In this document: positions 39,361 through 49,068 of the stretch, in pieces
Numbering within the stretch: position 1 is the first letter of the stretch
Layout: every line of letters starts with the position of its first letter
Origin: Candidatus Anaeroferrophillacea bacterium
GTDB taxonomy: Bacteria; Desulfobacterota; Anaeroferrophillalia; Anaeroferrophillales; Anaeroferrophillaceae
Assembly: GCA_016933675.1 (NCBI GenBank)
Contig: JAFGAM010000100.1
Location: forward strand, 8,928 to 72,927
DNA: 64,000 nt
Reading direction: 5' to 3'
Notes under the pieces: model-generated
The model's database searches: none
What the model was told of the DNA's origin: nothing
The model's input: only the letters and a program-made list of their open reading frames with translations
Program-made: the position numbers and the translations under genes

Positions 39361-39651
39361 GACGATGCTCCTTCACCTTGTCTCGACATCCATGCGATAT
39401 CTATGCGATCGGCCGGCATGGCCTCATTCCACACTTTTTATTAACTCGAATTATGAGGTAAAAACAATCGTGAAGTGATGCAAATGTGAGGTTTCTCTTG
39501 AGAAGTCGACAATTCACCTGGTGCGTGCGGGTGCGGTTTCATACCGAGGAAAAATCCGTGCTGGTCGGGGCCGAATCCGCCGCTTTACGGCCGCCCCGAT
39601 ATCGGTTATATTCCGGTGCATCCGCTAACGTTTACGAATAAGGAGTTTGCC

Positions 39652-40422
39652 GTGAAAAGGATGTTTTCATTATCGGTCACGATTTTGCTGCTGTTTGTCT
39701 TTGCTTCCGTGGCCGCCGCCGCGCCCACCGACATCACCGTGCGGGTGCGAAGCAAAGGAGCGAAGTTTATCGGTTCGAGCATGGGTGGGGTACTGATCAC
39801 GATTAAAGATGCCGACACCGGCGAACTGCTGGCCAGAGGGACGGTCGTCGGCGGTACCGGGGATACCGAGTTGATCATGAAACAGGCGCACCGTACCGGC
39901 GAGTCCTATGCCGACACCAAAACCGCCGCGTTCACCGCCACCTTTGACCTCGATGCGCCCCGTTATCTGGAGATCGCCGCCTTCGGCCCCCTGGCCCAGC
40001 GGCAGGCCGCCAACCGTGTCACCCTGACCCAGTGGGTGGTGCCCGGCAAGCATCTCACCGGCGGTGATGCGATGATGCTGGAGATGCCCGGCCTAGTGGT
40101 CGACGTGCAGTCGCCCGCGACGCACATCAAGTTGTCCGGGACGCCGCAAACTGTGAAGATCGAGGCCAATGTGACGATGATGTGCGGCTGCCCCATCGAA
40201 CCTGACGGTCCCTGGGGCGCGGATGACATCGAGGTGCGAGCGCTCATCAGGAGGAACGGCAAAGCATACACCGAAATTTCGCTGGGCTATGCTGGCCGCA
40301 CCAGCCAGTTCGCCGCTGATTTCACCATCACTGAACCCGGGGTTTATGACGGCACGGTATACGGCTACGAGGCCGCCACCGGCAATACCGGGCTGGACCG
40401 GTTTACCGTAGTGGTCAAGTAA
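39652..40422 (+). CDS. secreted protein of unknown function
   Basis: AAGGAG RBS then GTG 39652 (an ATG at 39661 is also possible). Signal peptide MFSLSVTILLLFVFASVAAA. No family recognised. Confidence 0.5.
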   Translation: MKRMFSLSVTILLLFVFASVAAAAPTDITVRVRSKGAKFIGSSMGGVLITIKDADTGELLARGTVVGGTGDTELIMKQAHRTGESYADTKTAAFTATFDLDAPRYLEIAAFGPLAQRQAANRVTLTQWVVPGKHLTGGDAMMLEMPGLVVDVQSPATHIKLSGTPQTVKIEANVTMMCGCPIEPDGPWGADDIEVRALIRRNGKAYTEISLGYAGRTSQFAADFTITEPGVYDGTVYGYEAATGNTGLDRFTVVVK

Positions 40423-40445
40423 GTCATCGGTACCGGGTTTTGCTC

Positions 40446-40475
40446 TTGACAATCCGGTTTTCCGGGGGGTACAAA
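40446..40475 (+). promoter_or_regulatory. promoter candidate of riboswitch A
   Basis: TTGACA-atccggttttccgggggg-TACAAA. The same architecture recurs at 48379-48407. Confidence 0.4.
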
Positions 40476-40508
40476 GACAGGCTAAGAACATAGTAAGAAC
40501 ATAATAGA

Positions 40509-40675
40509 TTCGTTCGGGTGCTGTTTCAGCCTAACAGGGAACCCCGTGCAAACCGGGGACGGGCCCGCCGCTGTAATCGCCGACGAAAACCGCAAGATGC
40601 CACTGGCCGGCGCTGCCGTCCGGGAAGGCGCGGTGAGTAGATTGACGCGAGAGTCAGAAGACCTGCCCGAACGAA
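40509..40675 (+). promoter_or_regulatory. cobalamin (B12) riboswitch A, complete aptamer
   Basis: P1 TTCGTTCGGG/CCCGAACGAA encloses GGGTGC, AGGGAA, CCCGCCGCTGTAA, GCCACTG, GGGAAGGC and the B12 box AGTCAGAAGACCTGCC. Confidence 0.85.
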
Positions 40676-40738
40676 GCGGCTTCTCCCTTGGGTGAGGGAT
40701 GGCGTCGAGGAACTGTGAACGGGGCGTAAAAACGGATG

Positions 40739-40774
40739 CCCCCGTATCGGCTGCGGTCGATACGGGGGTTTTTT
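40739..40774 (+). terminator. intrinsic terminator (expression platform of riboswitch A)
   Basis: CCCCCGTATCG-gctgcggt-CGATACGGGGG followed by TTTTTT. Confidence 0.8.
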
Positions 40775-40854
40775 GTGCCCGGCACCTTGCATGCGCATGG
40801 AAACATCTGTTCCGGTCACTGATGGCGGGCGGTGGCGCGGGCAGCAGAGGAATC

Positions 40855-41700
40855 ATGGACATTGCCGCCGTTTTCCGGTCGCTGGAGCCGTTCCGTCAAC
40901 TGGAAGAAGATCGGCTTGTCGCCATCGTCGCGGGATTTACCCGGCGTTACTACCCGGTGGGTTTGCCGCTTTTCGGGGTCGATGAAGCTATTGCCGAGAT
41001 CGGCCTGGTTACCGCCGGGCAGGTGCGGCTGGAGGTTGCCGTCGGCAGGAATCGGTTCGTGTCTTTTCAGCGCATCGGCAGGGGCGAATTCGTCGGCCTG
41101 GAAAGTGTGCTGCTCGATGGCGGTTCACTGGTAAGAAATTTATCCGAAATTGCCGTCCGGGGATATTTCTGTTCCCGGAAAGATTTTTTCGCTTCACTGG
41201 GATCACTTCCCGATGTCCGGGGGTACTTTATGCGGGAAGCGGCCTCCCGGCTGGAAAAAGCGTTTCAGATCCTCCAGCGGGAGACGGTACCGGGCCCGGC
41301 TGCCGGCGACGCGGTATCGGCCGAACCGGTGCCTCGTGCCGTCGTGCCGCCTGCAGCCGCGTCCCCGGTTGCCCGTGCCCTGCGCTACATCGAGCAACGC
41401 TTCGCGCAGCCCATCGCACTTGACGAGATCGCCCGGGTCAACGCCATGAGCAAATCCCATTTCTCCCGGGTATTCAAGGTGGAAACCGGCTGCACCTTCA
41501 AGCGCTACCTGAACTGCCGGCGTATCGAGGCAGCAAAGGAACTGCTTTCCCGACGCGGGATGACGATAACTGAAGTCGCCATGGAGGTGGGCTTCAACGA
41601 CTTTGCCTATTTCAGCCGCACGTTTCACCGTTGTGCGGGGATGACGCCGTCCGAGTACCGGAAAACCCGCGCCGGCATGCCCCCGGCGTGGCAGACGTGA
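40855..41700 (+). CDS. transcriptional regulator: cNMP-binding-like (Crp-type) sensor domain + AraC-family HTH
   Basis: 281 aa from ATG 40855 (AGAGG RBS). The N-terminus FRSLEPFRQLEEDRLVAIVAGFTRRYYPVGLPLF...IGRGEFVGLESVL is Crp-domain-like. C-terminal AraC motifs are MSKSHFSRVFK and VGFNDFAYFSRTFHRCAGMTPSEYR. Confidence 0.8.
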   Translation: MDIAAVFRSLEPFRQLEEDRLVAIVAGFTRRYYPVGLPLFGVDEAIAEIGLVTAGQVRLEVAVGRNRFVSFQRIGRGEFVGLESVLLDGGSLVRNLSEIAVRGYFCSRKDFFASLGSLPDVRGYFMREAASRLEKAFQILQRETVPGPAAGDAVSAEPVPRAVVPPAAASPVARALRYIEQRFAQPIALDEIARVNAMSKSHFSRVFKVETGCTFKRYLNCRRIEAAKELLSRRGMTITEVAMEVGFNDFAYFSRTFHRCAGMTPSEYRKTRAGMPPAWQT

Positions 41701-41868
41701 AACAATCGCCGGCGCCGAGGGGCGTACCGGGAGGCGCGCCGGTGCCGAAACGGTGGACGGCTCCGGCCGGCCGCATGATTATGGTAATTTTGTTATAGTT
41801 TTTGGCAAACAACTCCAAGTATCAATATTTTTTTTGCGGTATACATGGCATCGTTCTCCATCATGAGA

Positions 41869-42036
41869 GGAACAGGAAAAGGGAATGCGGTGAAATTCCG
41901 CAACTGCCCCGCAACTGTAAATCCCGGTTGTCCGATCACGGACAATCAGTGCCGCGGCCAGGAATGCCACTGCTTCCTCATGGATGAGGCGGGAAGGCGG
42001 TCGCGGTCGGGAAAGTCAGGAAACCTTGCCTGTTCG
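41869..42036 (+). promoter_or_regulatory. cobalamin (B12) riboswitch B, canonical
   Basis: P1 GGAACAGG/CCTGTTC. AGGGAATGCGGTGAAATTCCGCAACTGCCCCGCAACTGTAA, GCCACTG, GGGAAGGC and the B12 box AGTCAGGAAACCTTGCC. Confidence 0.88.
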
Positions 42037-42532
42037 GTATGTTGTCGGGCTCTGTCGAGGGGCGGAGTGGCGATGAAGGTGCCGGCCGAATAACCGGGAG
42101 ATCCCCCGGTCGACCAAAGGCGCATTTCATTCTCTTCTCCTTCCCGATACGCAACATTCCGTCACATTCGTTTTCCGGCGGCTGCCGGAAATCCTCTCCC
42201 GAAAGTGGTGCCGGCAGTGCCGGCGCCGCAACCAGCGGACAAAGCCACACCCCGAGTGATCGGGGGCCGGAAAGCCATCGGGTCTCCACATTCCATGAGA
42301 CGGCCGGGTTGCCTACTGAAACATACGTACGGCGGCCCGGCCTTTTTTCCCGGGCCCGGAGCAGGGGAGGTGATGCCGGGCGCAAAGACGGTGCAGGGAT
42401 GTGGCGATGTGCGGGCGTACGGAGACTGGATACTGGATTGGAGCTTTGATCAGCGGACGCGAGAGCGCTGCCGCCCGCCGGGAACAGCAGGCGAAGCAAA
42501 GTGAAGAGGAAAGATAAAGGAGGTTTGTCATT

Positions 42533-43339
42533 ATGAAACGCAGTTTGTTGTTTGGCTGGATCATGATCGGGGTCGTATCCGCGTGGCTGCTTCCGGGCAG
42601 TGAAGCCCTGGCGGGATACTATGCCCCGGCGGCCGGTCAGGCCGGCTCGACCGCTATCTATATGAATGATGCCGCTTTTGTCGGCTGGGCCACCGGCTGG
42701 GAGGATTACAATGTCGGTAGCAACGTCGATGCCGGATGGCGGACGCCGGACAAGGCCCTCGGCAAGGCCATAGGGAGTTCTTATGATATCGTCTGTCTCG
42801 GCCGGGGTGGCTCGATTACGATGACCTTTGCCGACCCAATTGCCAACGGCAGCGGTGATGATTTTGCCGTCTTCGAGAACAGCTTCAACGATACCTTCCT
42901 CGAACTGGCCTATGTCGAGGTTTCCTCCAACGGGACGGATTTCTTCCGTTTCGCCAACGATTCCCAGACCGCAAGCGCGGTTGGCGGGTTCGGAGCGGTC
43001 GATCCGACGAATATCGGCGGTCTCGGTAGTAAATACAGACAGGGTTACGGCACGCCGTTCGACCTGGCCAGCCTGGCCGGTGTCAGTCCTCTGCTTGATT
43101 TAAACAATATCGGCTATGTGCGACTGGTCGATATCGTCGGTGACGGAACCTATTTTGATACCAGCGGTGATGTCATCTACGATCCCTATCCCACGGTCGG
43201 TTCCGCCGGTTTCGATCTGGATGCCGTCGGCGTGCTCAACAATGCCTCTCCGGTGCCGATTCCCAGTGCCGTCTGGCTGCTGGGCTCCGGTCTGGCGGGG
43301 CTGGTCGGAATTAGCCGCAAACGCGGGAACAGAGCATAA
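42533..43339 (+). CDS. secreted protein with unassigned ~200-aa domain and exosortase-type (VPxP/PEP-CTERM-like) C-terminal anchor
   Basis: AAGGAGG RBS and a signal peptide. Domain shared with 46475-48316 ([70 protein letters not shown]). Tail is [29 protein letters not shown]. Confidence 0.75.
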
Positions 43340-43390
43340 ATACGCCTCGCGGCGGATTACATTTAAACCTAATGATATTGGGAGGAAAGC

Positions 43391-44215
43391 ATGAAACGTT
43401 TCACCCTTAAAATTGCTTGCGCCATGGCGCTGCTGCTGCTGCTGACGCCGTCGCTTTACGCGGCCACGGCGACCTTCGATGATTTTGCCCTCGCTCCGGA
43501 GTCTCATTACGGCGGTGCCGGTTCAGGCGCAACCGGGTTTTCCGACGGCGGCGCCTTTTTCGAGCATAACTCCTCTGACTGGGCCTGGAACGGCTGGAGC
43601 TATTCCAATCACACCGATACCACTACCGCGGGGTATACCAACCAGTTTTCCGCCATTACCGGCGGCGGTGCCGGCGGAACGGCCAATTATGCCGTGGCCT
43701 ATGTCCCTACAGATTGGGCGGGCGGATCCTATGCTTCGCTCCCGATATCGATCATGCTGGATGATACCAGCGGCTCGTCATTGTCCGGCATGTACATCAC
43801 CAACACCACCTACGCCTACCTGTCCATGACCGGTGGCGATCAGTTCGGTAAAACCTTCGGCGGTGATACGGGAAATGATGCCGACTGGTTCAAGATGACC
43901 TACCAGGGAATCAGGTCCGACGGCTCTTTAACCGCTGCCTATGATTTTTATCTTGCCGACTATCGCTTCGCTGACAACTCTCAAGACTATATCATCGACG
44001 ACTGGACCTGGCTGAATCTCTCAGGTCTGGGCAATGGTCTCAAGGGTATCCAGTTTACCATGGCATCGTCGGATACCGGAGATTGGGGTATGAACACCCC
44101 CGCATATTTTGCCATCGACAACTTCAACGGTTCACCCGTCCCGATTCCCGGCGCCGTCTGGCTGCTGGGTTCCGGGCTGGCGGGGCTGGTCGGCCTGCGC
44201 CGGCGGCGTTTCTGA
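43391..44215 (+). CDS. DUF4465-like protein with exosortase-type C-terminal anchor
   Basis: Signal peptide. ATFDDFALAPESHY...NGWSYSNHTDTTTAGYTNQFSA...ANYAVAY...YITNTTYAYLSM..GDQFGK...FYLADY...WTWLNLSGLG...GMNTPAYFAIDNF matches my recollection of DUF4465. Tail is [26 protein letters not shown]. Confidence 0.75.
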   Translation: MKRFTLKIACAMALLLLLTPSLYAATATFDDFALAPESHYGGAGSGATGFSDGGAFFEHNSSDWAWNGWSYSNHTDTTTAGYTNQFSAITGGGAGGTANYAVAYVPTDWAGGSYASLPISIMLDDTSGSSLSGMYITNTTYAYLSMTGGDQFGKTFGGDTGNDADWFKMTYQGIRSDGSLTAAYDFYLADYRFADNSQDYIIDDWTWLNLSGLGNGLKGIQFTMASSDTGDWGMNTPAYFAIDNFNGSPVPIPGAVWLLGSGLAGLVGLRRRRF

Positions 44216-44480
44216 AACCTGGCCGCGACTGCTGTTTGACCACGGCCAGGTAACGGGATCACACCACATTAATTAAAAACAACGGCATTGATTTGACCGG
44301 GGCGGTGGTTCGTTTTTTGCGGATTGCCGCCCCGGTATGATGGCTTCGTGGTAAGAACGCCATTTTCATTCGTTGTATTGTCGATCGGGTTGTTCAGCGT
44401 ACGGCTGCGCGCACCACACGCCACAGTTTGTGCGCGCCTGGAATGAATTTCCAGCATTTACGGAAGAAAAATCAGCCTTG

Positions 44481-46418
44481 ATGAAAAAAACCGTTTGCTG
44501 GGTGCTGGTTCTCTGCTTGAGCTGGTTCGGGGTCGCGGCCGCCGAAACCACGGTGACAAACCAGACCTTGCCGCGCTTCCAGATGGATGAGATGGTGGTG
44601 ACCGCCGGGCGGGACGTGGAGCGGATCATCAACGTGCCCGCCAATGTCACCGTGATCAGCGCCGAGGACATCGAGAAATCCACCGCTACCACGATTACCG
44701 ATCTTCTCGCCGCCGAAGGGGGGCTGGTACGGCGGGGGTTTCTCGGCAACGACAAGAAGGCGGGCGTCGATATCCGCGGCATGGGCGAAACCAGCGTCAG
44801 CAGTGTCCTGGTGCTGGTCGACGGGGTGCGGATCAACCCGGCCGACATGGCCGGTCCCGATTTCAGCAGCCTGGCTCTGGACCAGGTGGAACGCATCGAG
44901 ATTCTGCGTGGTTCCGGCTCGGTGCTCTACGGCAACGGGGCCGTGGGCGGGGTGATCAACATTATTACCCGTCCCGAAGGCGGTCCGCCGGGCGGTATGG
45001 TGCGGCTGGAACGGGGGCGCTACGGGGCGGAAAAGGCGACCGTGCAGGCGCGCGGTACGGCCGGTGATTTCCGTTTCGCGGTTCTCGGGAACTACGCCTG
45101 CGAGGACGGTTACCGGGAGAACGGCGATCTGACCAACCGCAACCTCGATGCCCGGGCGGCGTGGGATATCGGCACCCGGCTGACCCTCTCGGGCGAGATG
45201 CGGTATCACCGGGACCATTACGGCTTTCCCGGCCCCCTGACCGAATCACAGTTCGAAGAAGACCCCCGGCAGAGCCTGGATGATACCGGCAGCGACGGTG
45301 ACACGGAAGAAGAGGCATATGTCGCCGGTCTGGACGGTTTTTTCGGGGCGTATGGCGACCTGTCGGTCAAGTTTACCGCCCGGGAGCGGGAGAACCGCTG
45401 GGTCATGCTCAGGTCGCCCGGTGAAATCCGCGAGCGCAGCCGGGATCTCAACCTGAAACACCGCCTCGAACATGACTTTACCGGCTGGCTGCAGAGCGAA
45501 CTGATTGCCGGGATTGATTACCGGGAAGCGGATTATCATCAGGTAACCTCGTTCGCGGTCAAGCCCTACGATCTCGACAGCGCCGGCTGGTATGCCCTTG
45601 AAAAAATCACCCTCTTCGACCACTGGATCATCCAGGCCGGCTACCGCCGCACCGATTTCACCTATGACGTCAGGAAGACCGACGCCGGCGAAACCTGGCA
45701 TTCGAATGATGTTACCCTCGGCATTGTGCGCCGCTTCTCCTGCGGCGACTTCCTTTCCGGCAGCCTGTTCGCCAATTACGCCACCAGCTTCCGGGTGCCC
45801 GATGTCGACGAACTGGGATTCGCCACCGACGATATCCGGCCCCAGGACGGCGAGCATCGTGACGCCGGGGTGAAACTCCGCTTCCGGAATCGCGCCGAGC
45901 TGATGCTGACCTGGTTTGATACCCGTATCGAGGATGAGATCTGGTTCGATGCCTTCAACTACATCAACACCAATTACGATCATCCGACGCGAAGAACCGG
46001 GCTGGAAACGAGCTTCCGGCTCTTTCTGCCGGCCGCGCTGCGCTGCTGGGGGAGTCATACCTATACCAAAGCGCGCTTCGAAGGCATCGATTACAAGGTG
46101 CCCACGGTGCCGCGGCACAAGCTGGTTCTGGGGTTGAATTGGGCGCCCCTGGAATGGCTGGAGGTGGGGGCGACCTACGACCGCGTGGGATCACGCCCCC
46201 AGGGCGGTGATCCCACCGTGGGCAGCCGGTATAAGGACATGCCGTCCTACGAGGTGGTGAACTGCAAGGTGACCGCCAGATACGAGCCGTACAACCTGAA
46301 GGTGTTCGTTGCGCTTACCAACCTCTTCAATGAACACTATTACAGTCTTTCGTATTACGATAACGTCTATCCGTCGCCGGGCCTCGGGGCGCGTCTCGGC
46401 CTCGAGTGGCGGATATAG
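44481..46418 (+). CDS. TonB-dependent receptor, BtuB-like size and context
   Basis: 645 aa from ATG 44481. Signal peptide, TonB box DEMVVTA, plug (NVTVISAEDIEKSTATTITDLL...VLVDGVRIN...IEILRGSGSVLYGNGAVGGVINIIT), and a beta-barrel to the C-terminus. Confidence 0.88.
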   Translation: MKKTVCWVLVLCLSWFGVAAAETTVTNQTLPRFQMDEMVVTAGRDVERIINVPANVTVISAEDIEKSTATTITDLLAAEGGLVRRGFLGNDKKAGVDIRGMGETSVSSVLVLVDGVRINPADMAGPDFSSLALDQVERIEILRGSGSVLYGNGAVGGVINIITRPEGGPPGGMVRLERGRYGAEKATVQARGTAGDFRFAVLGNYACEDGYRENGDLTNRNLDARAAWDIGTRLTLSGEMRYHRDHYGFPGPLTESQFEEDPRQSLDDTGSDGDTEEEAYVAGLDGFFGAYGDLSVKFTARERENRWVMLRSPGEIRERSRDLNLKHRLEHDFTGWLQSELIAGIDYREADYHQVTSFAVKPYDLDSAGWYALEKITLFDHWIIQAGYRRTDFTYDVRKTDAGETWHSNDVTLGIVRRFSCGDFLSGSLFANYATSFRVPDVDELGFATDDIRPQDGEHRDAGVKLRFRNRAELMLTWFDTRIEDEIWFDAFNYINTNYDHPTRRTGLETSFRLFLPAALRCWGSHTYTKARFEGIDYKVPTVPRHKLVLGLNWAPLEWLEVGATYDRVGSRPQGGDPTVGSRYKDMPSYEVVNCKVTARYEPYNLKVFVALTNLFNEHYYSLSYYDNVYPSPGLGARLGLEWRI

Positions 46419-46474
46419 ACAGAGCTTGATGAACCGGCATCTTGAACATCATTAACATGCGGGGAGAATAATTG

Positions 46475-48316
46475 ATGAAAGTAGCGATGGTGCGCAAACT
46501 TATGGTAAATATTATTCTTTTTCTTTCATTGCTGCTGGCCGGTGCCGCGCCGGTGTTCGCGGCCTACGGCGACCATGCCGGCCTATATGGTGAGAATGAC
46601 GGGATTCATGGCGGCAACCGCCTGGATCCGGGGGCTTACCCGAGCATGGATTCGCGTATCAAGGGCTGGGCCACCGAAGTGGTGAACTCGTGGCGTCCCG
46701 ATGCCGCCACTTTCGGTTCCCCGACCGATGTGCTCGGCCAGCCGGGCGGTACCTTCGACGTATTTTCGCTTGGCGATGGCGGCAGTATCACGGTGACCTT
46801 CCCGGTACCCATCGGCCGGGGTGACGGACCCGATTTCGCGGTCTGGGAAAATGGTTTTGTCTCCGTGCAGGGAGGTGAAACGGGGATGCTGTTCGCCGAA
46901 CTGTGTTATGTGGAGGTTTCCTCCGACGGCGTGCATTTTGTCCGTTTTCCCAGTGTGAACGGCAGTCCCGATTCCCTGGGCGGCTTCGACTGCATCGATC
47001 CGACCTACTATCACAATCTTGCCGGCAAGCATCCCAACGGCAACGACGGCCGCGATGAGGGCACGCCGTTCGAACTGAATGTTCTTGCCAACGACCCTGA
47101 GGTACTGAACGGAAATGTCGATCTCGACAATATTCTCTATGTCAGACTGATCGACCTGGTCGGCGACGGCTCGACCTTCGATTCTCTGGGCAATCCCATA
47201 TACGATCCGTATCCCACCCCCTTCGGCACCGGCGGCTGCGATGTCGACGCGGTGGGGGTTTTGAATCAGGGCGGGATCAACCAGCCGCCTGATCAGCCGA
47301 CGCCTGTAGCTCCGGAGGATGGCGCGGCCGAGGTGACCTTGCCGGTAGTCTTGTCAAGTTCCGCTTTCAGCGATCCGGATATTGATTCAGAACATGGGTC
47401 AACCCAGTGGCAGGTCAGTGTGAGTGCCGGCTTCGAAACAACGGTTTTCGATAGCACAAGTGCGACCGAGCTGATCGATATTACCCTGGATGACTCCGAT
47501 CTCAACGACGGTATCACCTACTACTGGCGGGCGCGGCATTACGACGATGACGGCGCCGCATCGGCCTGGTCGGCGACATCCAGCTTCACCACCGCGGCGG
47601 CGGTGATTCCGAATTCGGCGCCGAATCAGCCGAGCCTGAGCGCCCCGGCAAACGGTGCGACGGATATCTCTATGCCGGTGACTTTGTCAACCTCGGTCTT
47701 CAGCGATCCGGATGTTGATTCAGAACATGGGTCAACCCAGTGGCAGGTGAGCGAAAGTTCCGGTTTCGGTACGACGGCGTACGATGCAACGAGCAGTGAA
47801 CATCTGACCGCCTTGACACTCGACAATACCTTCCTGCTGGCGGATACGACCTATTACTGGCGGGCGCGTCATTACGACGATGACGGTGTAGCATCGGCCT
47901 GGTCGGCGACATCCAGCTTCACCACCATTGTCGGCGGCAACAGCCAGGCCTGGCCGGAGAATCCGCTGGTGCCGGTGGTCTGGCCCGCCCAGGTGGACCC
48001 GTTGACCACCCCGGTTCAGGTGGGTGCCTGCCCCGATGTTACGGTGCGGCCGTCGCTGCAGGTGTCGGCCGCCGATGTCGGCAAAACGGCGACGCTGATC
48101 ATGTATATCTATTTTCCTGATTACGGCTTCGGGATCAGTATGCGTTCCGCGTCGAAGAAACTGACAACCGAAACCGTTTTCGACCTGATCCCGACCGAAC
48201 TTGATCTCAGCGATGTCGGGAGGTACTCGTTCCACATCTACTACGGCTATATGGTCGGTTCAGATATCATCTACAGCGCCTACGCGCTGACGGTGGGTGA
48301 TGCCTGTGGTAATTGA
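46475..48316 (+). CDS. large secreted multidomain protein: paralog of the 42533 domain + two FN3-like 111-aa repeats + unique C-terminal domain
   Basis: GGGGAG RBS and a signal peptide. [70 protein letters not shown]. Then 2x (SDPD[IV][12 protein letters not shown]...[24 protein letters not shown]). Confidence 0.75.
47261..47926 (+). repeat. intragenic tandem duplication, 2 x 333 bp (FN3-like modules)
   Basis: Unit ends (ttcaccacc) lie at 47593 and 47926. Long near-identical stretches include ttcagcgatccggat.ttgattcagaacatgggtcaacccagtggcaggt and tactactggcgggcgcg.cattacgacgatgacgg. Confidence 0.8.
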
Positions 48317-48378: not shown

Positions 48379-48407
48379 TTGATAACCCGGTTTCCTGAGG
48401 GTAAACG
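48379..48407 (+). promoter_or_regulatory. promoter candidate of riboswitch-like element C (paralog of 40446-40475)
   Basis: TTGATA-acccggtttcctgaggg-TAAACG. Confidence 0.35.
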
Positions 48408-48430
48408 GGTGAAAAACGAATTATGAACAA

Positions 48431-48519
48431 TTCGTTCGGGTGCTATTTCAGCCTGACAGGGAACCCCGTGCAAGTCGGGGGCGGGTCACTGAATCGCAAC
48501 CGGGGCGATAAAACGGATG
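48431..48519 (+). promoter_or_regulatory. truncated cobalamin-riboswitch paralog C (5' half only; B12 box and 3' P1 strand missing)
   Basis: TTCGTTCGGGTGCTATTTCAGCCTGACAGGGAACCCCGTGCAAGTCGGGG is about 92% identical to the start of riboswitch A. It then jumps to AACCGGGGCGATAAAACGGATGCC, which matches the pre-terminator segment of A. There is no AGTCAG..CCTGCC box and no CCCGAACGAA. Confidence 0.55.
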
Positions 48520-48554
48520 CCCCATACCGGCGGATGCCGGTATGGGGCTTTTTT
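48520..48554 (+). terminator. intrinsic terminator following element C
   Basis: CCCCATACCGGC-ggat-GCCGGTATGGGG followed by CTTTTTT. Confidence 0.8.
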
Positions 48555-49068
48555 ACCCGTAACGCGATGTTAATCCGCTGCCGGCATGATTTATGGAACC
48601 GTAACAACCGCCGCTGAAGTTTAGCGCTTACACGTTTCCCATGCCCCGCATGAGACATCGGGGTTGAAAGCTCATTGAAAAAAGAAGATTGTCTAAGCTA
48701 CGCTGCTTTTTCCAATTCTGGCGGCTGTTTGTCTCTCGCCAAGCCTTTACTCGGCCCGAATTTTCCTGATTTCGGGTTCCAGAGAGAGCGAATGTCGACC
48801 TGTGCAAAAATCCGTTGCAGGCCCAGCCGCAGCCGCCCGGCGGTAATCGGATGACCTCCCCGCCAAGGGGCCAGATTTGCCAGCTCATGCAGAGGAAGGT
48901 TTTGATCCTTCTTCCAGGGCCGCGCAAAATTGCCGCAGTGTCAAGCACTTTTTTAACATTTTTTGCTTCGACAACTTTTTTTCAAAGAGCGCAGGTGAGG
49001 CCAAGGTGAGCGTGCTCACGAAGTGCTCAGAACTCTAAACTTCAGAACCGCCGGAATACGCTGAAAAG

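Follow-up and report, generated by a model that had tools for sequence, protein, structure and literature searches.

The window analyzed here is a 64,000-nt stretch of DNA from Candidatus Anaeroferrophillacea bacterium. On its forward strand lie a cobalamin riboswitch (riboswitch A) with an intrinsic terminator, the gene of a 281-residue regulator, a second cobalamin riboswitch (riboswitch B) in tandem with a c-di-GMP-I riboswitch, and a corrinoid-scavenging operon.

Riboswitch A and its expression platform

A promoter-like element, read directly from the sequence, is located at 40446–40475 (+). It comprises TTGACA (40446–40451), an 18-nt spacer, and TACAAA (40470–40475), just as an earlier sequence-only reading had claimed, with a weak −10. 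The element is missing from the list produced by our consensus scan because that scan accepts only −10 hexamers with T in the sixth position. Of 20 leaders of the regulator family described below, 15 have a TTGAC[ATG] box no more than 60 nt 5′ of the aptamer.

The full-length aptamer of riboswitch A (aptamer A) spans 40499–40684 (+). In cmscan it matches RF00174 with 115.3 bits (E = 3.5e-28; gathering score, 31.5) and aligns to model positions 1–189, which is the whole model, so that the full B12 aptamer proposed from the sequence alone passes the covariance-model check. In the alignment, the B12 box AGUCAGAAGACCUGCC, GCCACUG, AGGGAA, and the C-rich L5 are all at consensus positions. P1 is formed by 40509–40519 paired with 40666–40676, and the L5 loop GCCCG is located at 40563–40567. 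By score and motifs, aptamer A belongs to the cobalamin riboswitch class and is predicted to bind and respond to a corrinoid. In a strain variant (L009), identity over the aligned region 40300–41000 is 98%. Other RF00174 copies in the same genome precede canonical targets, namely two TonB receptors, CbiK, and CdhD.

RNAfold places a P13-like hairpin immediately after the aptamer (40677–40707, +). Its apical loop GGGU is complementary to the CCC of L5, and an equivalent hairpin is present in most family leaders. The post-aptamer hairpin may thus act as the partner in an L5–P13 kissing loop; when the leaders are compared by eye for L5–L13 covariation, the pairing registers are ambiguous.

An intrinsic terminator follows at 40738–40774 (+). 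The hairpin proper (40738–40769) has a 14-bp stem with nine G–C pairs and a 4-nt loop, and runs into a U6 tract (TTTTTT, 40769–40774), with a folding energy of −29.2 kcal/mol. The terminator proposed earlier is therefore present, with 14 pairs in the stem instead of the claimed 11. A G+C-rich hairpin with a U-tract between aptamer A and the open reading frame is the arrangement of a terminator-type expression platform. The candidate antiterminator (40719–40745, +) is derived from the fold of a transcript ending before the terminator 3′ arm and from RNAduplex; in it, ACGGGGCG (40719–40726) pairs with the terminator 5′ arm (40738–40745). Across the family candidates, the RNAduplex energies between the pre-terminator sequence and the terminator 5′ arm have z-scores from −2.4 to +1.1, with no significant advantage over shuffled sequences. 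In seven leaders (L016, L018, L021, L026, L029, L030, and L031), the terminator 5′ arm pairs best with the 3′ arm of the post-aptamer hairpin, which is a classic OFF design. The antiterminator of the window differs from this family-typical one, and with three hairpins its layout would also be compatible with ON logic.

The U-tract is separated from the start codon by a gap of 80 nt (40775–40854). Our consensus scan finds no promoter-like site in it, but the gap is long enough for an unrecognized promoter to hide.

A CNB-fold regulator with an AraC-type DNA-binding domain

The regulator gene (40855–41700, +) is an open reading frame of 281 codons preceded by GAGG 4 nt 5′ of the ATG. An upstream ATG at 40699, which would give a protein of 333 residues, was rejected because its reading frame would run through the terminator and because the N-termini of the family align with the start at 40855. 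The protein consists of a cyclic-nucleotide-binding (CNB)-fold N-terminal domain (residues ~1–145), a Pro/Ala-rich linker (~145–170), and an AraC-type double helix-turn-helix (HTH; ~171–273). Residues 192–270 match Pfam HTH_18 (PF12833; E = 1.7e-26; 92.8 bits, cut-off 33.6) and HTH_AraC (PF00165; 69.8 bits, cut-off 26.6). With its C-terminal double HTH above the curated cut-offs, the regulator is assigned by these profiles to the AraC/XylS family, in agreement with the 281-residue AraC-type protein predicted previously to start 80 nt past the terminator. Identity with PocR was rejected, as NF047788 scores 78.8 bits against a cut-off of 500 and only the HTH region is aligned.

The N-terminal domain is more divergent. 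The window regulator alone gives no Pfam match to the CNB domain (PF00027), and 18 of 19 homologues do match it. A profile of the family matches the CNB domains of PKG, PKA, and CAP in the PDB, with E-values down to 1e-29 for PKG; the strongest match is a multi-CNB PCR12 chain (6e-40). An AlphaFold (AF2) model built from the family alignment has a pLDDT of 87.6 and resembles the CNB structures of CAP, GlxR, Clp, and PKG with an rmsd of ~2 Å. It was used instead of a single-sequence model, which was dropped because the pLDDT of its N-terminal half is below 50. As modeled, the N-terminal half of the regulator is a CNB fold, with the same β-barrel and long C-helix as the CRP/FNR proteins CAP, GlxR, and Clp. 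However, in the phosphate-binding cassette (Gly-Glu ... Arg-Ser/Thr-Ala), which is required for cAMP or cGMP binding, Glu and Arg are not conserved in the family. In place of the canonical GE and R[ST]A, family members have G followed by a variable residue and a variable residue followed by Ser, respectively; the window regulator has G-L and G-S-L. The ligand of the CNB-like domain is therefore probably neither cAMP nor cGMP.

HTH_Crp gives no match in the regulator or its family, and the C-terminal half has the same double HTH as the AraC/XylS regulators. Membership in CRP/FNR was accordingly rejected: a CNB domain is present without the CRP-type winged HTH. The regulator is thus a hybrid, in which a CNB sensor lacking conservation of the cassette Glu and Arg is joined to an AraC HTH that replaces the CRP winged helix. 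Of the cNMP-binding-like or 'Crp-domain' sensor suggested from the sequence, the CNB fold stands, while the cNMP phosphate-binding residues and CRP/FNR membership do not.

Conservation of the riboswitch–regulator pair

To collect homologues we searched with the regulator N-terminal domain alone. The resulting family is small, very divergent (25–55% pairwise identity), and mostly from Desulfobacterota. A strong RF00174 aptamer lies directly 5′ of the regulator gene in 21 of the 24 loci with readable upstream DNA, and the homologues in the paired loci are only 25–40% identical to the window regulator. The scores range from 92 to 124 bits (L016–L019, L021, L026–L031, L033, L034, L036–L038, L106, L109, and L111), and in a relative from the same phylum (G405) the upstream aptamer was found by nhmmer. 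In contrast, none of 21 generic AraC loci has an RF00174 match (Fisher p = 1e-9 for family versus control AraC loci, computed on 20 of 23 loci). A clear upstream aptamer is missing in three family lineages (L022; L110; L107/L108), and L107/L108 retains a mere 30.7-bit remnant.

The terminator is also conserved, with 15 of 17 family leaders carrying one in the corresponding place. The recurrence of aptamer and terminator 5′ of family members is far beyond chance. In ten of the terminator-containing leaders, the U-run ends 6 nt (L016 and L029) to 31 nt 5′ of the start codon, leaving no space for a separate promoter; co-transcription is the sole option in these leaders. In the Desulfosarcina/Desulfobulbus/Desulfobacter clade, the riboswitch–regulator pair is retained beside other, unrelated genes, and variants reduced to the HTH (L035 and L189) also keep the riboswitch. 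The conserved pairing and the tight spacing between terminator and start codon therefore indicate that riboswitch A is cis-acting and most likely B12-OFF. The direct relay from riboswitch to transcription factor that had been proposed from the sequence is supported by this comparison.

The regulator is missing from all 40 of the closest relatives searched, as is the upstream gene of 268 residues. Therefore, synteny with close relatives is uninformative, and the role of the regulator cannot be linked to core physiology. A word-based protein search gives HTH-level matches only; the best of them, P0002, was rejected as an orthologue, as it adjoins Tad-pilus genes and has no riboswitch.

The scavenging operon and the proposed circuit

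Downstream of the regulator, riboswitch B (41829–42046, +; RF00174, 74.1 bits) forms the operon leader in tandem with a c-di-GMP-I riboswitch (42234–42316, +; RF01051, 48.7 bits). The candidate target operon (42533–48316, +) encodes a PEP-CTERM secreted protein (42533–43339, +), a DUF4465/BtuJ-type PEP-CTERM protein (43391–44215, +), a TonB-dependent receptor (44373–46418, +), and a 614-residue surface protein (46472–48316, +). DUF4465 is a B12-binding domain (PMC13398666). A corrinoid-scavenging operon (BtuJ/DUF4465, BtuH-like, TonB receptor) is located just 3′ of the regulator in about half of the loci, the window included, and DUF4465 and BtuH-like genes lie 3′ of the regulator in at least nine homologous loci. 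Past the operon, a truncated paralogue of the riboswitch A leader (48379–48558, +) contains a copy of the promoter, the 5′ third of the aptamer, the pre-terminator segment, and the terminator. Over 51 nt, its aptamer part shows 92% identity; the ligand-binding core has been lost by deletion, and RF00174 has no match in 48379–48558.

In the circuit we propose, the regulator mRNA would be monocistronic or operon-initial and would start at ~40482 from the TTGACA/TACAAA promoter. Binding of adenosylcobalamin or another corrinoid would hold the aptamer fold through P1 and the L5–P13 loop contact, allowing the 14-bp terminator to form and transcripts to end in the U-tract. When corrinoid is scarce, alternative pairing with the terminator 5′ arm would let RNA polymerase read through, and the regulator would be translated from the ATG at 40855, only under B12 limitation. 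The regulator would then probably activate the neighboring scavenging operon, whose own leader would impose two further gates, a second B12 OFF switch and an ON switch responding to c-di-GMP, making a coherent feed-forward loop; such a loop is suggested by the B12 and c-di-GMP riboswitches of the operon itself. The CNB-like domain would supply a further small-molecule input. In this scheme we infer the ligand, the OFF logic, the exact antiterminator, and the targets and effector of the regulator.

Control of the regulator in cis by riboswitch A is very likely, and OFF logic is quite likely. Taken as a whole, the explanation that a B12 riboswitch sits in cis in the leader of the mRNA of a CNB-fold/AraC-type regulator is likely. 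Most likely, then, a transcription factor is present in amounts governed by the B12 level, a rare form of control in two steps, first by RNA and then by protein. That the adjacent operon is the target of the regulator is a little short of an even prospect. The regulation of neighboring uptake genes envisaged earlier gains from the synteny in at least nine loci, but not from an operator: no shared motif was found 5′ of either promoter. This search covered the 110 nt 5′ of riboswitch A in 17 loci and of riboswitch B in 10 loci; k-mers allowing one mismatch did not exceed the shuffled controls. The word 'AGCAAA' repeats 5′ of riboswitch B and is marginal only.

Three other explanations bear on the same elements. 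In one, the regulator is simply the first cistron of a single B12-repressed transcript that runs through riboswitch B and the c-di-GMP riboswitch into the uptake genes; riboswitch A would be a first checkpoint for uptake, and the function of the regulator would be unrelated to B12. There is indeed no terminator between the regulator stop codon (41700) and riboswitch B, and the distance from the stop codon to the next aptamer is 48–65 nt in L029, L021, and L016. However, a promoter-like TTGGCA, 16 nt, AATATT (41802–41829) precedes riboswitch B, and both the solitary pairs of the Desulfosarcina/Desulfobulbus/Desulfobacter clade and the riboswitch-bearing HTH-only variants argue against this explanation, which we consider unlikely. 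Reversed polarity is slightly more unlikely still: B12 binding would free ACGGGGCG to pair with the terminator 5′ arm, and the regulator would be made when B12 is plentiful. The window platform, which has one hairpin more than its relatives, can be folded accordingly. If the P1 3′ strand is left unpaired, UGCCC (40664–40668) pairs with the GGGGC element, and the terminator forms; once the aptamer is folded, a nascent GGGGCGU/AUGCCCC hairpin covers the terminator 5′ arm. However, the terminator coexists with folded aptamer A in the full-length fold, and the leaders of clearest design (L016, L018, L021, L029, and L030) show standard OFF architecture. In addition, to our knowledge, the cis-acting cobalamin riboswitches validated so far are OFF switches, and it would be physiologically odd to produce an activator of B12 scavenging only at times of B12 abundance.

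The third explanation separates riboswitch A from the gene. The short terminated transcript would be a trans-acting sRNA or a sponge for a protein, comparable to EutX/Rli55, and a separate promoter within the 80-nt gap would drive the regulator. In favor, the terminator is very strong, its A-tract/U-tract flanks could give a stable 3′ end, the gap before the ATG exists, and the truncated paralogue is a promoter and terminator without a coding gene. However, the gap contains no promoter-like site, the spacing in the ten homologous leaders is too tight for one, and a trans-acting sRNA does not need a pairing with one protein family that is kept at 25–40% identity. The sRNA alternative raised in the sequence-only reading gains no support from the conserved tight spacing and is highly improbable, although at the window locus itself, with its 80-nt gap, it keeps a small probability.

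Returning to cis control, a tentative and somewhat doubtful extension is a conserved 'B12-starvation regulon' in Desulfobacterota and neighbors. In it, the riboswitch would be the corrinoid sensor for a family of AraC-type activators, comprising full-length members whose degenerate CNB domain senses a non-cNMP signal (possibly c-di-GMP, a corrinoid, or a tetrapyrrole) as well as HTH-only forms about the size of MarA. In most descriptions, riboswitches act as short feedback loops on transport and biosynthesis genes. If a cobalamin riboswitch directly gates a transcription factor here and has been retained over long evolutionary time, RNA sensors can top protein-based regulatory cascades, and the B12 regulon of these anaerobes exceeds the riboswitch-bearing genes, with B12 control reaching promoters without a riboswitch. 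Together with the tandem B12/c-di-GMP riboswitches on the BtuJ/BtuH/TonB operon, a conserved regulon would make a multi-input feed-forward circuit. The circuit would be defined and testable: two B12 switches and one c-di-GMP switch would act together with a single ligand-binding activator on the scavenging of extracellular corrinoids, which is of central importance in the competition for B12 in sediments and guts. Experiments are feasible, as two carriers are available in culture (Desulfosarcina cetonica JCM 12296 and Desulfobulbus elongatus DSM 2908).

The locus shares the RF00174 class, the terminator platform, and the corrinoid-uptake setting with btuB of E. coli/Salmonella and btuB/btuG/btuJ of Bacteroides. 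Unlike in classic cobalamin riboswitches, the controlled gene encodes a transcription factor, not a transporter, biosynthetic enzyme, or B12-independent isozyme. EutX and Rli55 are sRNAs under B12-riboswitch control, and they sequester the ANTAR regulator EutV; there, too, B12 sensed by RNA is relayed to a protein regulator, but in trans by sequestration, whereas here the mRNA is controlled in cis. The Vc2 c-di-GMP riboswitch of Vibrio cholerae lies upstream of tfoY; in that case, too, the 5′ UTR of a regulator gene contains a riboswitch, giving an RNA-then-protein cascade, with a different ligand class and regulator family. Our literature search found no published description of a B12 riboswitch–AraC regulator pairing. 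In Listeria monocytogenes, the B12-riboswitch-controlled antisense RNA AspocR acts against the AraC-type PocR (cited in PMC11124144 and in the sequence-only reading), so that the level of an AraC-family factor depends on a cobalamin riboswitch there as well. In Listeria that control is indirect: the antisense RNA comes from the opposite strand, and B12 permits PocR expression, whereas here it is in sense, from the gene's own 5′ leader, and most likely a shut-off.

Tandem AdoCbl/c-di-GMP-I riboswitches are reported from Desulfobacca acetoxidans (Sherlock et al. 2022, PMC9481103), and the leader at 41829–42316 has the same 'NOT B12 AND c-di-GMP' tandem. The passages of that paper drawn on here cover tandem gates and contain no riboswitch-controlled transcription factor; riboswitch A, in comparison, is a single aptamer before a regulator. 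The tandem of riboswitch B and the c-di-GMP riboswitch recurs in homologous loci, where several such riboswitches are also clustered within a few kb.

The cobalamin riboswitch in front of the regulator gene

Riboswitch A, the cobalamin aptamer 5' of the regulator gene, matches RF00174 over the full model length at 40499-40684 with 115.3 bits (E 3.5e-28; gathering score, 31.5). P1 pairs 40509-40519 with 40666-40676 in an 11-bp stem, and a canonical B12 box is present. The terminator hairpin at 40738-40769 has 14 bp, 9 of them G-C, a 4-nt loop and an energy of -29.2 kcal/mol, and is followed by TTTTTT. By direct reading, a promoter-like element comprises TTGACA at 40446-40451, an 18-nt spacer and a weak -10, TACAAA, at 40470-40475; it is not in the output of the consensus scan, which demands T as the last -10 base. 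The same scan reveals no promoter-like site in the 80-nt gap between terminator and ATG. The regulator ORF (281 aa) starts from the ATG at 40855, with GAGG just before it. Re-reading 40300-41800 thus recovers the elements of the sequence-only reading: the promoter-like element, the full B12 aptamer, the terminator (described there as an 11-bp stem with U6 at 40739-40774) and the 281-aa regulator 80 nt further on. A metagenome contig (L009) carries a strain-level variant with 98% identity across aligned 40300-41000.

The aptamer is an ordinary RF00174 member; the unusual part is its target gene. The genome's remaining RF00174 copies lie 5' of CbiK, a corrinoid protein of CdhD type and two TonB receptors, and riboswitch A is the copy with an unusual target. 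To our knowledge, the routes known to lead from a B12 riboswitch to a regulator are indirect: AspocR is an antisense RNA against PocR, and EutX/Rli55 is a sponge for EutV. In contrast, riboswitch A appears to lie in the regulator's own leader. A literature search of incomplete coverage found no account of a CNB-AraC regulator (CNB, cyclic-nucleotide-binding fold, PF00027) whose leader contains a cobalamin riboswitch.

The CdhD-type gene, encoding a subunit of the CO dehydrogenase/acetyl-CoA synthase corrinoid iron-sulfur protein, is itself an uncommon target; its riboswitch (98.5 bits) lies at G000:C97:93858-94029 (L007:1501-1672), with the ORF at L007:1735-3081 downstream. Just 5' of riboswitch A, 39616-40422 encodes a 268-aa signal-peptide protein with no match in Pfam or NCBIfam and a single homologue among 40 relatives (39% identity, G003). 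No terminator is found between this gene and the riboswitch A promoter.

Conservation of the pair and switch logic

The regulator is not found among the 40 closest genomes and is rare in the phylum (a 400-genome sample gives two full-length matches and two that are HTH-only), and the informative remote homologues are drawn from public assemblies and GTDB genomes. RF00174 aptamers of 92-124 bits lie directly 5' of the gene in L016-L019, L021, L026-L031, L034, L037, L038, L106, L109 and L111, and in two cultured carriers, Desulfosarcina cetonica JCM 12296 (L033) and Desulfobulbus elongatus DSM 2908 (L036). In the phylum relative G405, the aptamer is detected with an nhmmer profile of riboswitch A aptamers. 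Overall, 21 of 24 loci have the pairing, and generic AraC genes from the same scans have it in 0 of 21 (Fisher's exact p = 1e-9, calculated on the 20 of 23 loci then known). The question whether relatives also carry a B12 riboswitch before this regulator is thereby answered positively. Three lineages have no clear aptamer: L022/L023, L107/L108 and L110. In L110, an ABC-ATPase ORF on the upstream side overlaps the gene, and just 320 nt of upstream DNA is available. Pairwise identity within the family is just 25-55%, indicating that the linkage is old.

Several side observations concern this family. A degenerate aptamer remnant of 30.7 bits, just below the gathering score, precedes the gene at L107:2201-2358 and L108:2175-2251, with the nhmmer match confined to model positions 28-83; it looks like a riboswitch decaying while the regulator gene remains intact. 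Two of three HTH-only, MarA-sized relatives (112-136 aa) keep a riboswitch-A-type aptamer directly 5' (L035:2698-3411; L189 in G250:C14, ~2440-1501, minus strand), and the third (L002/G032) has an aptamer downstream of the gene only. At L019:2415-3852, a cobalt-chelatase gene (CbiK) that has a cobalamin riboswitch of its own lies immediately 5' of the riboswitch-regulator unit, placing two B12 switches on one strand inside 1.5 kb.

The leaders point to control in cis. A strong hairpin with a U-run separates aptamer and start codon in 15 of 17 family leaders. In L016 and L029, 6 nt separate the U-run from the start codon; eight other leaders have 18-31 nt there, and the remainder, window included, 61-102 nt. 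Since 6-31 nt leaves no space for a separate promoter, the riboswitch in those leaders must, judged from sequence, belong to the 5' UTR of the regulator mRNA itself; riboswitch A, by homology, would do likewise. The direct relay from riboswitch to transcription factor that had been proposed gains support accordingly. In 15 of 20 leaders, a TTGAC[ATG] box occurs in the 60 nt before the aptamer, which fits a self-contained transcription unit. Across the Desulfosarcina/Desulfobulbus/Desulfobacter clade, the pair is kept among unrelated neighbours (PepSY, phage replication protein, M20 peptidase, DnaE), indicating that the pair itself is the conserved unit.

In the cobalamin OFF design, ligand-dependent docking of the post-P1 hairpin on L5 releases the terminator. 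In seven family leaders (L016, L018, L021, L026, L029-L031), the best partner of the terminator 5' arm is the 3' arm of the post-P1 hairpin (in L021, UCAAGGCG with UGCCUUGA), an arrangement that by its predicted pairing is the textbook OFF design. The window has the hairpin, at 40677-40707, with a GGGU loop opposite CCC of L5, and its best antiterminator candidate in the nascent transcript is a separate ACGGGGCG element, 40719-40726 with 40738-40745. The energies of candidate antiterminator duplexes have no significant advantage over shuffles. Because of these energies and the differing antiterminator, we consider OFF logic likely for riboswitch A, and no firmer than that, the rival being that it works as an ON switch.

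A CNB-like domain joined to an AraC HTH

The C-terminal 100 residues of the regulator form a standard AraC double HTH (HTH_18, 92.8 bits; HTH_AraC, 69.8 bits). For the N-terminal half, the window sequence alone gives no Pfam match, and single-sequence AlphaFold gives no usable model. Residues 1-165, as a phmmer query against 1.8 billion representative proteins, retrieve a small family of 264-288 aa (P0062-P0067, P0069), whose precomputed annotation is cNMP_binding plus HTH_AraC. PF00027 matches 18 of the 19 members in the family alignment (A4). The family profile matches PDB CNB domains of PKG, PKA-R and CAP (E to 1e-29, PKG), with a multi-CNB PCR12 chain on top (6e-40). The AlphaFold model from the family alignment is confident (pLDDT 87.6) and resembles the CNB domains of CAP, GlxR, Clp and PKG, isolated CNB domains fitting at ~2 Å. 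These matches and the model argue for a predicted layout of CNB beta-barrel and long C-helix, disordered Pro/Ala linker and AraC HTH.

The canonical form of the phosphate-binding cassette is G-E ... R-[ST]-A. In the family, the Glu position and the residue before Ser are variable (G-L and G-S-L in the window), so binding of cAMP or cGMP seems unlikely.

The regulator differs from PocR: the NF047788 match is limited to the HTH region and scores 78.8 bits, where the cut-off is 500, and this identity is rejected. It also differs from CRP/FNR proteins, which are rejected because its DNA-binding domain is AraC-type. The earlier Crp-domain/AraC label holds for the CNB fold and the AraC HTH, with the proviso that the protein is no CRP/FNR family member.

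The downstream scavenging operon

Riboswitch B, a second cobalamin aptamer (41829-42046; RF00174, 74.1 bits), is next after the regulator, and a c-di-GMP-I aptamer (42234-42316, 48.7 bits) follows 188 nt later. These tandem aptamers (41829-42316) occupy the ~700-nt leader of a BtuJ/BtuH-like/TonB operon, encoding in order a secreted protein with PEP-CTERM, a second PEP-CTERM protein with DUF4465, a TonB-dependent receptor whose best matches in NCBIfam are receptors for siderophores and B12, and a surface protein of 614 aa. DUF4465 is the B12-binding BtuJ domain (PMC13398666). AdoCbl and c-di-GMP-I aptamers in tandem are known from Desulfobacca acetoxidans, where they are described as a 'NOT A AND B' gate (PMC9481103).

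DUF4465 and/or BtuH-like genes lie 3' of the regulator in L016, L018, L021, L026-L029, L031 and L032, and in homologous loci such genes are mostly preceded by the same tandem riboswitches. On the sole basis of this synteny, the regulator may control the scavenging operon. Comparison of k-mers for a common operator yielded no signal above shuffles; the suggested control of neighbouring uptake genes thus keeps its support from synteny and finds none from a common motif. If the regulator is an activator produced only at low B12, the circuit would be a feed-forward loop of the coherent type, to which c-di-GMP and the ligand of the CNB-like domain would add further inputs. We infer the ligand of riboswitch A, the targets of the regulator and its effector.

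The cobalamin/c-di-GMP-I tandem occurs in at least 10 homologous loci. Its aptamer order is reversed in L017 and L031, and L016 has three successive riboswitches, two Cbl and one c-di-GMP.

Between the last operon gene and a TonB2-type energiser cluster, 48379-48558 holds a shortened paralogue of leader A. It opens with a copy of the promoter, joins 51 nt of the 5' aptamer (92% identity) directly to a CGGGGCG-A-tract segment and ends in a terminator of 12 bp and U6; it has lost the ligand-binding core, and RF00174 does not match it. It could be a decayed duplicate, a constitutive terminator or a small RNA.
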